Of a stretch of DNA of 64,000 bases, positions 4,217 through 9,756 are shown one piece after another. Position 1 is the stretch's first letter. Every line of letters begins with the position of its first letter. Location of the stretch: the IMG/VR virus record IMGVR_UViG_2925908680_000001; one strand, written 5' to 3'. The notes beneath the pieces were generated by a model. The model searched no databases, had not been told where the DNA came from, and saw nothing but the letters and a program-made list of their open reading frames with translations. A program made the position numbers and the translations under genes. This stretch comes from a virus (lineage: Duplodnaviria; Heunggongvirae; Uroviricota; Caudoviricetes).

Positions 4217-4707
4217 TTTACGTAAAAGTGAAACGCCTACATCCGGCAGCAAAACTTCCAGCTTATGCCACCTCCGGATCGGCGGCGATGGATTTTGAGG
4301 CTGTTGAAATAACACCATGCGTCGATAGCAATGGTGAAATTTCCTCAAGCTGGTGGGTGCATACCGGACTGGCTATGGAGATCCCGCCCGGCTGGTGTCT
4401 GAAACTCTATCCGCGCTCCGGGTTGGGTTGCAAAAAACATACCCGCCTGGCTAACTGCGTAGGAATTATCGACTCCGATTATCGCGGTGAAATCATGGCA
4501 AAACTGATTGCTGATCCCGGCGGGGAAGGCGTTTGCCTCAAGCCTGGAATGGCTGTTATGCAAGGCATTTTTGAGCGTGTTGAACAAGTCTCACTAGTCG
4601 AGGTTGAGGAACTCAACGAAACGGAACGTGGTGCTGGTGGCTTTGGTAGCACATCGGAAGGCCACTTTGAAATTAAGCGTTCACCGCTTCAGTACGAAAA
4701 GTTATAA
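4213..4707 (+). CDS. dut: dUTP diphosphatase
   Basis: dUTPase motifs in translation (AGxDL-like SAAMDF, PRSG, GIIDSDYRGE). Confidence 0.85.
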   Translation: MIYVKVKRLHPAAKLPAYATSGSAAMDFEAVEITPCVDSNGEISSSWWVHTGLAMEIPPGWCLKLYPRSGLGCKKHTRLANCVGIIDSDYRGEIMAKLIADPGGEGVCLKPGMAVMQGIFERVEQVSLVEVEELNETERGAGGFGSTSEGHFEIKRSPLQYEKL

Positions 4708-4721
4708 GCAGAGAAAAGACT

Positions 4722-5372
4722 ATGAATAACATGGCAACGAAAGAGCTTTTTAAGGTCCTTCCCAAATACAAAGCTCACAAAAACGTTAGTGCATCGAAAA
4801 TCAAAAATGTTGTTATTTTCGGAGTAACTGATGACCCACTTTGGGGCTGCATCGAACTCGTTGAACCCAAAGGGGCAACAGTTTGTGTTGACGCAATTTT
4901 TTTACAAAAACACCGACCAAAAACTGGCGGGTATCTGATCGTTTATGAAAACGGTTATCTGTTCTATGCCCCGGAGAAACCATTTGAGCAATGCTATGGC
5001 CTGGTTAACGACGCCTCCGAAAATGGGGTATCGCTCAGCATTGAAGGTCACAATGGGGTGACATTCATTACAGCCAGGGACGTAACTATTGCTGTCGGTG
5101 GCATCATTACCACACAAGAAGAAATCGACCTTGAAGCAGCCGACTTTTCTGACGCGCTAATGTGGCTGAAAGAAGGAAAAAATGTAGCTCGACGCGAGTG
5201 GAAAGGCGAAAAGCAATTCTGCTGGTTAGTTCTCGCTGGGAGCGTCAATTTACATGACATTCAGGTTCCTTATGGTGACCATTTTGTGTTGAAAGATGCA
5301 CAAAATATAAACAGCGTTTGGTTGCCGTCTGTTGATGATTTACTGGCTTGTGACTGGTTTGTAGTGGAGTGA
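4722..5372 (+). CDS. hypothetical protein, 216 aa
   Basis: ORF in operon after dut; C-terminal region W/K-rich; unassigned. Confidence 0.55.
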   Translation: MNNMATKELFKVLPKYKAHKNVSASKIKNVVIFGVTDDPLWGCIELVEPKGATVCVDAIFLQKHRPKTGGYLIVYENGYLFYAPEKPFEQCYGLVNDASENGVSLSIEGHNGVTFITARDVTIAVGGIITTQEEIDLEAADFSDALMWLKEGKNVARREWKGEKQFCWLVLAGSVNLHDIQVPYGDHFVLKDAQNINSVWLPSVDDLLACDWFVVE

Positions 5373-5378
5373 TTTGAC

Positions 5379-6155
5379 ATGGAAAGCACCAAAACAATTC
5401 AATACCGCTTGCGTAATGGCCTGCTGGTGGCTGTTAACGCCGACATGTCACTGCCGTTTGACACGATTGAACGCACTATCATGACGTATCTCGGCTTTAA
5501 TGAAGAGCTGAATGAAGAGCATGGCGTAGCTATATGGAGTGATGCAGACAGCGGCGTTCGTCGTTACATCACCGCCAGGGGCAAAGACTACTCTCTGGAA
5601 GAACTGTTTGCCCTTGCGCAGTCTTTCGAATGTGTAGCATTAGACCTGTTTAATGATCCTGCTATAGCGCAACGACTTATACGCGAGCTTGGGCTATCCG
5701 TTACACCAATTATCTTTAAAAATGGCAGCCTAACTGGCACATGGCGCGTAGAACGCATCTCAAACTACCTTCCATATAACCGACAGTTAAATGGAGTAAT
5801 CTCCGGCGTTAATCAGCCCGTAGCGTGTGAAAATGTAAACCTGGTTGTCGCTGTTTTGGCAACCGCATGTCGTGTTATCGGTTTGGCTAAACAGGCATTT
5901 ATTCATTTCCCAAATGGTGCAGAAGGTAGCGCAGAGATTATCGCGTGTGATTTCGAATTTACCTGGATGCTACGCGAATATCTGGACCAAACAGTATTCC
6001 GTGCCGAAGAACTGGATATGTATATCACGTCAACGATTCCAGACGATGTGCGAGCTGAAGCAATCGCTACAGCCAGGGCGAAATGCCGTGCGGCGATTGC
6101 AGAACGGGCCAAAGAAGAACAGTCCAATGATACAGCGGCAGAAGAGGTGAAATAA
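5379..6155 (+). CDS. hypothetical protein, 258 aa
   Basis: ORF followed by a clear terminator. Confidence 0.55.
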   Translation: MESTKTIQYRLRNGLLVAVNADMSLPFDTIERTIMTYLGFNEELNEEHGVAIWSDADSGVRRYITARGKDYSLEELFALAQSFECVALDLFNDPAIAQRLIRELGLSVTPIIFKNGSLTGTWRVERISNYLPYNRQLNGVISGVNQPVACENVNLVVAVLATACRVIGLAKQAFIHFPNGAEGSAEIIACDFEFTWMLREYLDQTVFRAEELDMYITSTIPDDVRAEAIATARAKCRAAIAERAKEEQSNDTAAEEVK

Positions 6156-6161
6156 CAAAAA

Positions 6162-6189
6162 GCCCGCTTGGTATGGCGGGCTTCTTTTC
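6162..6189 (+). terminator. rho-independent terminator
   Basis: gcccgc-ttggtatg-gcgggc hairpin followed by ttcttttc. Confidence 0.6.
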
Positions 6190-6406
6190 AAATACTGGAA
6201 GCACTTTGTCTGCTACCAAGCATTCTCTGTTTAAGCACAACCATTTCCTGACGGCATAACACAGCAATAGCGGTCCTGGCACCAATTTGCTTACCAATCA
6301 GGTATTGCTTTACCTCGCGGCGACTCACGCCATCAAGAAGCATCTTTAACGCTTCACGGGACAATTTGTTGTATTTGCGTGCCATTAATCTACTCCGCAG
6401 AACCAT
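6188..6406 (-). CDS. hypothetical small protein
   Basis: Short ORF on the same strand as doc; start uncertain. Confidence 0.3.
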   Translation of the reverse strand: MVLRSRLMARKYNKLSREALKMLLDGVSRREVKQYLIGKQIGARTAIAVLCRQEMVVLKQRMLGSRQSASSI

Positions 6407-6665
6407 ACAATCTACGTAGCGTGGTAGCAGTAGATGCAGATATCGCCCTTAAAACCTCCTCCTTACTTACATCACTGCGGGAGAGGATTTCAGAAGGCGA
6501 TATTTCCTTTAACGACTTTTGCTTCTCTTTGCAGTTCTCGACCAGTTCCGCAGGAATAACAAACCTGCTATCAATCGGCACAAGTTCATCAAGCGTTTGT
6601 TTGGGTACGTTAAACGTAGGATTCTTGAACACCGCAGATTCGGTTCTTAAGTTAATTTTCGACAT
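6390..6665 (-). CDS. hypothetical small protein, 91 aa
   Basis: Short ORF; unassigned. Confidence 0.35.
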   Translation of the reverse strand: MSKINLRTESAVFKNPTFNVPKQTLDELVPIDSRFVIPAELVENCKEKQKSLKEISPSEILSRSDVSKEEVLRAISASTATTLRRLYGSAE

Positions 6666-6684
6666 TGTTTCGTAACTCCACTAC

Positions 6685-7065
6685 TCAAGTCTTGGAACCA
6701 TATAGTTCACGTAGCTTTTCTGCGACTGAAGATACGGCGATTTCACCAGTCGCAGCCCCTACAGTAAGGTCTGCCAGTTCAGGTGAATCAAATACCTGCA
6801 CCCCGTTACGGCGTAGAAATAGCAGCGCACTGTTTAGCGCGGTACGCTTATTGGCATCATTGAATATATGCCCTCTCGCTGTAGCCACCAGGTAGGTGGC
6901 GGAGACTTCGAAAAGGTCGGTGATCTCTTCGTAGGCAACTCTGGCCTGAACTCTCCCGATAATGGCCTCTGCCCTGCCCGGATCTGACATGCCAGGCAGG
7001 CCGCCGTAGCGGCTTATATTCGCATCATGAAGCGCAATAAGTTCTTCCGGTGATATATGCCTCAT
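6685..7065 (-). CDS. doc: Doc toxin (Fic-family kinase)
   Basis: 126-aa translation almost identical to P1 Doc as I recall it ([25 protein letters not shown]...). Confidence 0.95.
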
Positions 7066-7286
7066 TATCGGTTAACCAGTTCCTTGTTGGTGGAGTCCAG
7101 GGTGTCAAACAGGGATGCAAATTCAGCATCCAGCGCCGCTTTTTTGTAGGCTTCGAAAGTAGACTTGCTGACAATTACTGCTGGCTCACGGCCTCTGCGG
7201 GTGATTTCAACCTCTTCCCCGGCTTCAACATTGTTGAGCACTTCAGAAAGGTTGCCGCGCGCGGTACGGAAGTTAATGGATTGCAT
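7065..7286 (-). CDS. phd: Phd antitoxin
   Basis: Translation from the internal Met ([39 protein letters not shown]...) matches P1 Phd; stop overlaps the doc start. Confidence 0.95.
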
Positions 7287-7358
7287 AAACACCTCGTGTA
7301 CTCGTTATGTGTACACAATTATAAACCTCACAGGCATAAAGCACCAGCCCTTTGCAGC

Positions 7359-7748
7359 TTAAATAACCGGACAATCATCAAACTCCCCAATTCGGGCATC
7401 ATTGATGACATGAGTGATCACACCAAAAACAGCATTACTGCCCGTGCATCCATCGTCATCTACTGGTAACGCCTCTTTCTTCCCGGTGCTTAAATCCTCC
7501 AGGTGCTGGCGCGGATACTTCCTGTATCTCTTTATGCGATATTCACCCTCCATAGCGCAGACAAGTAGCGAACCATCAACCGGAGTAAGTGAGGAATCGA
7601 CCACCAGCAAAGCACCCTGCAATATTCCCTCACGGTGATGGCTATCAGCTGCCCGCATGAAGTAGGTTGCTGATGGATGCCTGATTAGTTGCTGATCAAG
7701 AGAAATTCGGCTTTCAACATAATCCGCCGCAGGAGAAGGGAAGCCCAT
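7359..7748 (-). CDS. humD: UmuD-like S24 peptidase (HumD-like)
   Basis: UmuD/LexA C-terminal domain features; adjacent to phd-doc as in P1. Confidence 0.8.
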   Translation of the reverse strand: MGFPSPAADYVESRISLDQQLIRHPSATYFMRAADSHHREGILQGALLVVDSSLTPVDGSLLVCAMEGEYRIKRYRKYPRQHLEDLSTGKKEALPVDDDGCTGSNAVFGVITHVINDARIGEFDDCPVI

Positions 7749-8504: not shown

Positions 8505-8564
8505 ATCGAGGTAGAAAACACATTGTTTAAGGCCACTAATTGTGGCCTCAAAGGGGAGAGATGC

Positions 8565-9116
8565 TTATTGGCTATGGCTAAAAATCAAATGAGACACTTC
8601 ATGTGGTTGTAGCTCGTCAAGATCCGGGGCCACAAAACCTTTTCCGAAAAACTTCACAAGTAATTCACCAGCCGAATCATTGTCACCTATTACACGAAAG
8701 TCATACGGCAGCATCGCAAGTTGACGGCGTAATCCTGCGGAGAAAGTCGAACCTAACAGCGCCCACGAATTGCCGCCCGCGTTGTGTACAGCTGCGCTCT
8801 TAAAAATAGACTCAGTTATCCATATTGGGCCATCTTTTAAAGGAAGATAGGTTCCCCAAAGTAACTGTCTGCCATGTGATCGCGTGAAATACCGGGCCAT
8901 CTTCGGATTGCTATGCTGCTTAGGAGCACCTGGTCTATATGTCTGATACCCAGCCAACATCCCATCAAACCTGTATAGAGGGAATGTAACTACTCCTTCA
9001 CTTTCATCGATCCACTGTCTATATGGGTGTATATCATGGCGGTAGTTACGAGTTAGCAAATGAGCTTCCAGCTTTCCAAATTTTGTCATATTCCGTTCTT
9101 CCTGCATACTGGGCAT
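8565..9116 (-). CDS. Toprim-like domain protein, 183 aa
   Basis: Translation has a conserved Glu (ITESIF) followed by VIGDNDSAGE, a DxD motif in Toprim-like spacing. Confidence 0.5.
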   Translation of the reverse strand: MPSMQEERNMTKFGKLEAHLLTRNYRHDIHPYRQWIDESEGVVTFPLYRFDGMLAGYQTYRPGAPKQHSNPKMARYFTRSHGRQLLWGTYLPLKDGPIWITESIFKSAAVHNAGGNSWALLGSTFSAGLRRQLAMLPYDFRVIGDNDSAGELLVKFFGKGFVAPDLDELQPHEVSHLIFSHSQ

Positions 9117-9391
9117 GTGTTCTCTGTGAAATATGGGAAACTATTATCCAGCTCATCTACCCACTGTTTATGGTCGAAGCAGAAAAATATCTCCCACGGC
9201 ATTCCATATTCTTCCATCCATAGGCGGATCTGCATTTCTATTGGAATCGGCGGTATTGCAGACACCATATCAACAGGATAACAGTTCAGACGACGTTCCA
9301 GTTTTTCTACTCTCTTCTGGAGATGAAATATCCGATCCAGATGCACACGCCGCTCCCGTGCCATTTTAAAATAAAGCTCGCCGGTCATCAT
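9086..9391 (-). CDS. coiled-coil / zinc-ribbon small protein (paralog 1)
   Basis: C-terminal FPYFTENTCPVCR; paralogous to the adjacent gene. Confidence 0.5.
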   Translation of the reverse strand: MMTGELYFKMARERRVHLDRIFHLQKRVEKLERRLNCYPVDMVSAIPPIPIEMQIRLWMEEYGMPWEIFFCFDHKQWVDELDNSFPYFTENTCPVCRKNGI

Positions 9392-9756
9392 TAACTCCTA
9401 CATTCAGGGCAAGAGTTCCCTTCCGCAAAATAGGGGAAACTGCTATCAAGCTCATCACACCATCTGCGATGGTCGTAGCACCAAAACGCCTCCCACGGTG
9501 CACGGAAATACTTCATCCACCAGGACACTCGATCAGGTATATCTGCTGGTGGCAGCTCTTCTGGCAATAATTTGCCTGATAATTCCCTTTCCGCCCGCGC
9601 CAGCATTCCTTTTAGACTCGCATTCTCTTTTTCAAGAATATCTATGCGCGCCTGTAACTCAGCTTTCGTTGGCATGGTCCGCCTCATGCTTTTCAGCCAC
9701 CAGCGGCAATAAAGCCCTGGCCATCTTATGAACCAACAGAGCATCGATAATGCCAA
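9391..9756 (-). CDS. coiled-coil / zinc-ribbon small protein (paralog 2)
   Basis: C-terminal FPYFAEGNSCPECR plus shared WE(A/I)FxCxDH(K/R)xWxDELD motif. Confidence 0.5.
   Translation of the reverse strand: MALSMLCWFIRWPGLYCRWWLKSMRRTMPTKAELQARIDILEKENASLKGMLARAERELSGKLLPEELPPADIPDRVSWWMKYFRAPWEAFWCYDHRRWCDELDSSFPYFAEGNSCPECRS

Follow-up and report, generated by a model that had tools for sequence, protein, structure and literature searches.

A putative Rad-family (retron anti-defense) gene encoding a zinc-finger-less primase core on a P1/D6-like phage-plasmid

The 64,000-nucleotide stretch of viral DNA analysed here (IMG/VR record IMGVR_UViG_2925908680_000001; hereafter the window) belongs to a P1/D6-like phage-plasmid and carries on its minus strand a small open reading frame (ORF; 8565..9116) with the acidic motifs of a Toprim domain. 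We propose, with a probability of roughly 0.7, that this gene belongs to the Rad (retron anti-defense) family and is present as a single-gene accessory cassette that disables host retron immunity. The anti-retron activity of this particular copy is a property that we infer from its homologues. The protein as a whole is a minimal catalytic core of the DnaG/T7 primase type, with Toprim making up only its C-terminal half.

Rad was described as ORF75 of phage SP15, a small protein with primase/TOPRIM features encoded in a tRNA-rich region, by Azam et al. (10.1101/2023.03.15.532788), who counted 541 homologues in phage genomes. It rescues phages from the retrons Ec67/Eco2, Ec78/Eco7, Ec83, Ec48 and Se72, it reduces msDNA (the multicopy single-stranded DNA of retrons) as well as msr-msd RNA, and its activity is lost in the mutants R13E, P33T, I88T, D135H and E156H; the authors proposed that it acts by RNA cleavage (10.1101/2023.03.15.532788). 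Rescue from Eco2 and Eco7 was confirmed in the peer-reviewed version (PMC11555353), and anti-retron activity is known only for SP15 Rad and three homologues (10.1101/2023.03.15.532788, PMC11555353), with the Rad of Proteus phage Privateer among the proteins tested and found active (10.1101/2023.03.15.532788). ORF071 of phage T5, formerly annotated as a primase, has since been equated with Rad (PMC10644984).

It is through T5 ORF071 (AAX12008.1; AY587007.1 37201..37719, beside tRNA-Ser and tRNA-Met) that the window protein is most directly tied to Rad. The two proteins are 43% identical over 167 of 174 amino acids (BLASTP, E 9e-33) and fall into the same PHROG, 849, and the same hidden Markov model (HMM) family. 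T5 ORF071 has R13, P33, I88, D135 and E156 exactly as in the list of SP15 mutants, and all five map to identical residues in the window protein (R14, P37, I91, D138 and E159). The predicted structure of the window protein also superimposes on the Privateer protein, annotated as 'DNA primase', with TM-scores of 0.78/0.82 and a root-mean-square deviation of 2.1 Å at 29% identity. Like the tested proteins, the window protein is a stand-alone, single-domain product in the Rad length class, at 174 amino acids. Taken together, the identity to T5 ORF071, the five matching residues and the shared fold with the Privateer protein place it well inside the span of functional Rad homologues.

The length of 174 amino acids depends on the choice of start codon. 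An earlier note on this DNA had described a stand-alone, Toprim-like product of 183 amino acids, and an ORF of that length does exist, counted from the first ATG at 9116. The most likely start, however, is the ATG at 9089..9087, to judge from four features of the sequence and its relatives: tblastn alignments with homologues open at residue 10 of the 183-residue form; the RefSeq entry WP_000159954.1 ('toprim domain-containing protein') uses the same start codon; this codon shares an ATGA with the stop of the upstream ORF; and a purine-rich, Shine-Dalgarno-like stretch, AGGAAGAACGGA, lies immediately 5' of it. We therefore take the coding sequence to be 8565..9089 (minus strand; 174 codons plus stop), as supported by the ORF list, the homologue N-termini, RefSeq and the T5 ORF071 match. 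The in-frame extension of nine codons (9090..9116) falls within the upstream ORF, at its 3' end, and is probably untranslated. Residues are numbered throughout on the 174-residue form, which contains no cysteine.

The assignment of the fold relies on the family more than on the single protein. PHROG 849, labelled 'DNA primase', matches the window protein with an E value of 6e-53; Pfam gives no match to it even at E <= 10, NCBIfam and PADLOC gave no match for the window protein itself, and a single-sequence search of PDB sequences returned only noise, so that a family profile was required. A profile built from 129 members matches DnaG catalytic cores in the PDB with E values of 1e-6 to 6e-5 from sequence alone. 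In this alignment the family motifs G-Y-x-x-Y, K...N-P, TEG.F[DK] and D.D.AG correspond to G-F-G-G-R221, K229...N232-x-P234, VEGYMD269 and D309-G-D311-R-A-G of DnaG, and DnaG motif III (K229...N232-x-P234) lines up with the segment K57 to N61-P62. The AlphaFold2 model of the window protein, made from a nine-sequence alignment, has a mean predicted local distance difference test (pLDDT) score of 88.7 and a predicted template modelling (pTM) score of 0.85, and in a Foldseek search with it the first 33 PDB matches are all primases of the DnaG/T7 type. Thus, of the checks that the earlier note had proposed, profile searching failed with Pfam and succeeded with PHROG 849 and with the family profile against DnaG, while structure prediction gave a confident model with a primase-type fold that includes Toprim. 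The note's suggestion of a primase-like protein is borne out by both lines of evidence.

Because the fold and profile matches to DnaG-type cores span both halves of the protein, Toprim can account only for the C-terminal one, and the description of the product as a Toprim-like protein is correct as far as it goes: the protein is stand-alone and Toprim is present, but only as half of a primase core. The N-terminal subdomain of the primase-type RNA-polymerase domain comprises residues 1–85 (8835..9089, minus strand) and carries the family-conserved residues R14, G47, Y51, P53, K57, N61, R66, Y67, W78 and G79. The Toprim subdomain (residues 86–174; 8568..8834, minus strand), delimited by predicted secondary structure and family conservation, is predicted to run strand 89–92, helix 95–103, strand 107–112, helix 118–125, strand 131–136, helix 139–148, strand 151–154 and helix 162–173; in the model this order can be read as the beta-alpha alternation of a Toprim domain, the acidic residues lying where strands end. 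The last Toprim helix ends the chain, and the protein has neither a zinc ribbon nor a helicase-binding part nor an ATPase domain.

Both sequence features to which the earlier note had drawn attention, a conserved Glu and a following GDNDSAGE segment, are real. They are read directly in the ORF as ITESIF and IGDNDSAGEL, and belong to the acidic motifs E93, D136-x-D138 and D156-x-D158-E159. On the minus strand E93 is encoded at 8811–8813, D136 at 8682–8684, D138 at 8676–8678, D156 at 8622–8624 and E159 at 8613–8615. In the alignment of 129 members, E93 is conserved in 128, D136 in 116, D138 in 118, D156 in 122 and an acidic residue (E/D) at 159 in 109. Conservation is equally strong at several sites of the N-terminal subdomain (R14, 127; G47, 129; Y51, 125; R/K66, 127; Y67, 129; G79, 128), and lower at K57 (105) and N61 (98). 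The acidic pocket is thus intact and the nucleotide/template-binding motif kept in part, and so conserved a set of residues speaks for an active, metal-dependent enzyme.

The family is large and widely spread. An exhaustive profile search, on which our census is based, recovered 1209 cluster representatives, where a word-indexed protein search gave only 15 relatives; among the 150 best, most are stand-alone proteins of 155–200 amino acids. With a family of this size and the PHROG 849 and DnaG matches, the signal goes well past what chance would give. Hosts include Kagunavirus/Jersey-like phages, T5-like phages and Erwinia jumbo phages, among others. Some members are fused to further domains: an Arr-like ADP-ribosyltransferase (P0055, P0137), a GNAT domain, a HAD phosphatase, an NMNAT-like cytidylyltransferase or a DUF3268 zinc-finger domain (P0129). 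In Erwinia jumbo phages (H73, H76, H77 and H100) and related contigs the gene is consistently broken into two pieces or reading frames, each annotated as a hypothetical protein (loci L037, L038, L044, L054, L085 and L086, around 5990–6500), which could reflect a frameshift, recoding or decay.

In the phage-plasmids to which the window belongs, the gene behaves as a mobile accessory. Phage D6 matches 56% of the first 25 kb of the window at 94% identity; P1, P7, SJ46 and RCS47 also match, as do hundreds of non-mobilizable E. coli plasmids. Among 5426 complete E. coli genomes, the full gene is found in 60, every copy being on a plasmid and none on a chromosome. A further pattern is seen in 87 of these genomes, where all that is left of the gene is its 3' part, about 210 nucleotides without annotation (query 313–525, about 92% identity); one example (L092 3001–3212; NZ_CP012491.1 61991–62202) lies in a stretch of about 1 kb without annotated genes. 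This suggests repeated gain and decay at a variable locus of P1-like plasmids. A protein 96–97% identical to the window protein is encoded by the phages PhiR41_1 (PV340561.1; L001 8001–8525) and CMS-2020a, each of about 108 kb. In PhiR41_1 an EaA-like gene stands upstream instead, and a UmuD-like gene is again just downstream, which suggests cassette exchange between phage-plasmid types.

How such a protein would act can be sketched only by analogy with the T5/SP15 protein. It would be made on phage infection or induction and would then disable retron immunity of the host. Its target would be a component common to all retrons, namely msr-msd RNA, its product msDNA, or both, and such a target would explain the breadth of the effect across retrons. 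The most likely route would be through the Toprim metal-binding acidic pocket (E93, D136, D138, D156 and E159) acting together with a basic and aromatic N-terminal face (R14, K57, N61, R66 and Y67), and the candidate chemistries are RNA cleavage, as put forward in the preprint, nucleotide transfer, or sequestration. A more speculative idea, to which we give a small chance, is that Rad proteins are not simple RNases but zinc-finger-less primase cores that turn their nucleotide/template site on msDNA or on the branched msr-msd RNA, the similarity of the family to the RT_UG29 and RTasDnaG-like reverse transcriptase-associated proteins being the trace of an old partnership of primase and reverse transcriptase now turned against the host. 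The site would consist of K57, N61, R66 and Y67 with the Toprim acidic pocket; RNA might be synthesised or extended on msDNA, or the priming site of the reverse transcriptase might be occupied, and in consequence the sensor molecule of the retron would be destroyed or never formed. On this idea, the placement of family genes by tRNA genes and CCA-adding enzymes could mean that tRNA is a second substrate.

Several points weigh against the proposed anti-retron role. The window protein is only 29–43% identical to the tested Rad proteins. No tRNA gene was found in the window, while the T5-like copies occupy a tRNA-rich anti-defence region. We know of no precedent for a primase-core fold working as an RNase, and the benefit that an anti-retron gene would bring to a temperate P1-like element is hypothetical. 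Finally, the mechanism put forward for Rad comes from a single preprint; the peer-reviewed paper withdrew that claim and says that its authors were unable to establish how the protein acts (PMC11555353).

Three other explanations have to be set against the Rad reading. Given its fold, the protein might be an auxiliary DNA primase that supplies the phage-plasmid with RNA primers when it replicates, for example with the element's own DnaB-like helicase, and so lessens dependence on host DnaG. It has the full RNA-polymerase-domain fold of DnaG/T7-type primases, the Toprim acidic residues and the equivalents of K229 and N232 of motif III are conserved family-wide, and many phage records carry the label 'DNA primase'. 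In T7 gp4 and DnaG, however, a zinc-binding domain is required for template-directed primer initiation, and the cysteine-free window protein has neither such a domain nor a helicase-binding part. In Kagunavirus the family gene does follow a helicase gene in the replication module, but that helicase is SNF2-like and not DnaB-like; no primase–helicase pair is therefore suggested, and we rejected a replication-module reading of this arrangement. Elsewhere the family gene coexists with another primase: the T5-like phage DaisyDussoix has a separate one in its replication module, and a 218-kb viral contig (L062) encodes a canonical DnaG-type primase with Zn_ribbon_DnaG, DNAG_N and Toprim domains (4492–5406, minus strand) divergently adjacent to a 244-residue Rad-like paralogue (5980–6714, plus strand). 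Among P1-like plasmids the gene is sporadic and often decayed, and therefore dispensable for replication. The Cys/His-motif proteins encoded just upstream might have supplied the lacking zinc ribbon, yet they show no match to that of primases and are not conserved partners. We accordingly consider an auxiliary primase unlikely. A role in processing or repair of tRNA or other RNA, for instance as a Toprim RNase that matures or repairs tRNAs and affects retrons only secondarily, is in our judgement similarly improbable, even though the link of the family to tRNA is a real one. Family genes lie in or beside tRNA clusters not just in T5-like phages: the same holds for four or more unrelated large-phage lineages, of 110–300 kb (L008 5989–6507; L091 5202–5720; L035, L037–L041, L044, L049, L060, L063 and L078), and they are repeatedly adjacent or fused to CCA-adding tRNA nucleotidyltransferases (L009 3631–5465; L060 9554–10621; L062 6736–8316; proteins P0085 and P0143). 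On one metagenomic contig (L007 1494–4397), a Rad homologue has a Ro/TROVE-like RNA-binding protein (phrog_850) on one side and a polynucleotide-kinase-like AAA_33 protein on the other, an arrangement that looks like an RNA-repair context, and RNase M5 provides a precedent for a small Toprim RNase. Nevertheless, among 59 loci scanned for tRNA genes with flanks of up to about 6 kb per side, such genes flank 13 and are lacking from the flanks of 46, and the window too is without one; the link thus holds at the level of the family and is missing from the window and most loci, and we keep it as a rival. The fold match to RNase M5 is limited to the 90-residue Toprim. The effectors of the retrons Ec48 and Se72 are not known to target tRNA. 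Rad blocked these two as well, and in T5-like phages the regions rich in tRNA genes also serve as anti-defence islands (10.1101/2023.03.15.532788).

Very improbable, in our view, is the direction in which the earlier note had leaned, namely that the protein is an OLD/Gabija/PARIS-type nuclease serving as defence or toxin, or that it makes up a two-gene system together with neighbouring small genes. The intact Toprim catalytic residues, the position close to phd-doc, within an accessory block carried by a temperate element, and the translational coupling to an upstream small gene would all fit. The note was right about that accessory location, and right that the protein is too short to carry an ATPase: there is no such domain, and no ATPase or helicase gene is seen among the neighbours of the window gene. 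The relation to OLD/Gabija/PARIS nucleases itself finds no support, as none of the 129 family members matches the GajA, OLD or AriB models of PADLOC, in which the only recurrent matches are to DnaG-like domains of reverse transcriptase-associated proteins (100 and 94 of the 129), and the closest structures are primases, with OLD-type Toprims not among the top structural matches. A part in a split system is likewise unsupported, because the neighbouring genes vary from copy to copy and are not conserved alongside the Rad-family gene. As for a defence effector, the role assigned to the family by experiment is the reverse, counter-defence by phages against retrons, with the phenotype demonstrated for a homologue (10.1101/2023.03.15.532788, PMC11555353), and no member is a known defence effector.

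The partners most readily proposed for a split system were two tandem paralogous small genes of phrog_3797 that lie directly upstream (9086–9391, 101 amino acids, and 9391–9756, 121 amino acids; both on the minus strand, from the ORF list). Translation of the proximal one is coupled to that of the Rad-family gene through the ATGA overlap. Both proteins terminate in C-x2-H-x18/19-C-x2-C, superficially like the CHC2 zinc ribbon of DnaG, and their N-terminal parts give weak matches of coiled-coil type. Neither matches Zn_ribbon_DnaG or other zinc-finger families even at E <= 1. Across 17 near-identical IMG/VR loci, both genes are upstream in nine, only the distal one in two, and neither in six; they are not upstream of the near-identical PhiR41_1 copy or in any distant lineage, and no recurring zinc-motif neighbour is found among 21 family clusters. 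A split primase with the phrog_3797 proteins as partners was therefore rejected, on the lack of a zinc-ribbon match and the absence of the partners at near-identical copies and in distant lineages.

More broadly, the Rad-family gene is the last of a leftward row of small genes that runs from 12537 down to 8565 and includes, besides the two phrog_3797 paralogues, genes for a DUF551 protein and an ASCH-like protein along with several unknowns. A putative terminator hairpin, with an 11-bp stem followed by a T-rich tail, lies 13 nucleotides past the stop codon (8526..8552, minus strand); it comes from a pattern scan and is a consensus match only. Beyond the 3' side of the gene are a convergent, rightward gene of 193 codons, then humD (UmuD'-like; 7359–7748, minus strand) and the phd-doc toxin-antitoxin genes (6685–7065 and 7065–7292, minus strand). 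The arrangement of phd-doc and humD is typical of P1-like elements.

The Rad family and its phenotype have already been described, in a preprint and in part in a peer-reviewed paper, and the RefSeq annotation of the gene is generic. What is new is the occurrence of a mobile Rad-family cassette in P1/D6-like phage-plasmids, and in another context in PhiR41_1 and CMS-2020a, together with the recognition that the whole Rad-family protein is a DnaG-type catalytic core without a zinc finger. An anti-retron gene until now drawn from virulent T5-like phages would thereby be placed on P1-like phage-plasmids, which are temperate elements of E. coli, Salmonella and Shigella, and the known counter-defence load of such vehicles of resistance genes would be widened. 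The database labels 'DNA primase' and bare 'toprim domain-containing protein' can be corrected accordingly. The mechanistic question is also sharpened, to how a complete primase core without a zinc finger blocks retrons, and the conserved residues identified here are direct targets for mutagenesis and biochemistry.

In comparison with DnaG-type primases (E. coli, 1dd9/3b39; S. aureus, 4e2k; T7 gp4, 1nui; T4 gp61), the Toprim E/DxD/D-x-D set and the K...N-x-P motif III align, whereas the window protein reaches only about half the size of that core in DnaG and has no zinc ribbon, no helicase-binding or helicase domain, and no counterpart of the extra helical subdomain found in bacterial DnaG. 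Family-wide, a Tyr (Y51) takes the place of DnaG R221, and in the window protein a Lys takes that of D269; unlike those of DnaG-type primases, the window gene is unlinked to a replicative helicase. The primase-like N-terminal domain of Twinkle (7t8b, 8e2l) differs in being fused to a helicase. In metazoans this domain has lost primase activity, whereas the Rad family retains the acidic residues. The relation to the Mycoplasma 'DNA primase-like protein' MG010 (TIGR00646) falls far under the curated cut-off.

Outside the primases proper, RNase M5 and other small Toprim proteins (6tg6, 2i5r) align with the window protein over only about 90 residues. In RNase M5, a different domain comes after a Toprim that is N-terminal; the window protein does not have this layout of an N-terminal Toprim with an RNase M5 C-terminal domain, and the Rad family instead has a primase N-terminal subdomain ahead of Toprim. 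The PADLOC matches mentioned above are to RTasDnaG-like (100 of 129 members) and RT_UG29 (94 of 129); they are weak (best E 1.7e-10), cover the N-terminal subdomain as well as Toprim in some members, and may reflect shared DnaG ancestry only. The RTasDnaG-like and RT_UG29 proteins are parts of defence systems and much larger, and the window protein itself stays under the PADLOC threshold.

The nearest known relatives of the window protein thus remain the Rad proteins themselves. T5 ORF071 and SP15 Rad share with it the length class, the stand-alone form, the 43% identity and the five tested residues, and the Privateer homologue has a near-identical predicted fold. T5 ORF071 also has the same Lys in place of the acidic residue equivalent to D269 of DnaG (ES[IV]FK), although it passes Pfam Toprim_2 while the window copy falls below every Pfam Toprim model. 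The two differ, finally, in their carriers, a virulent T5-like phage in the one case and a temperate P1/D6-like phage-plasmid in the other.
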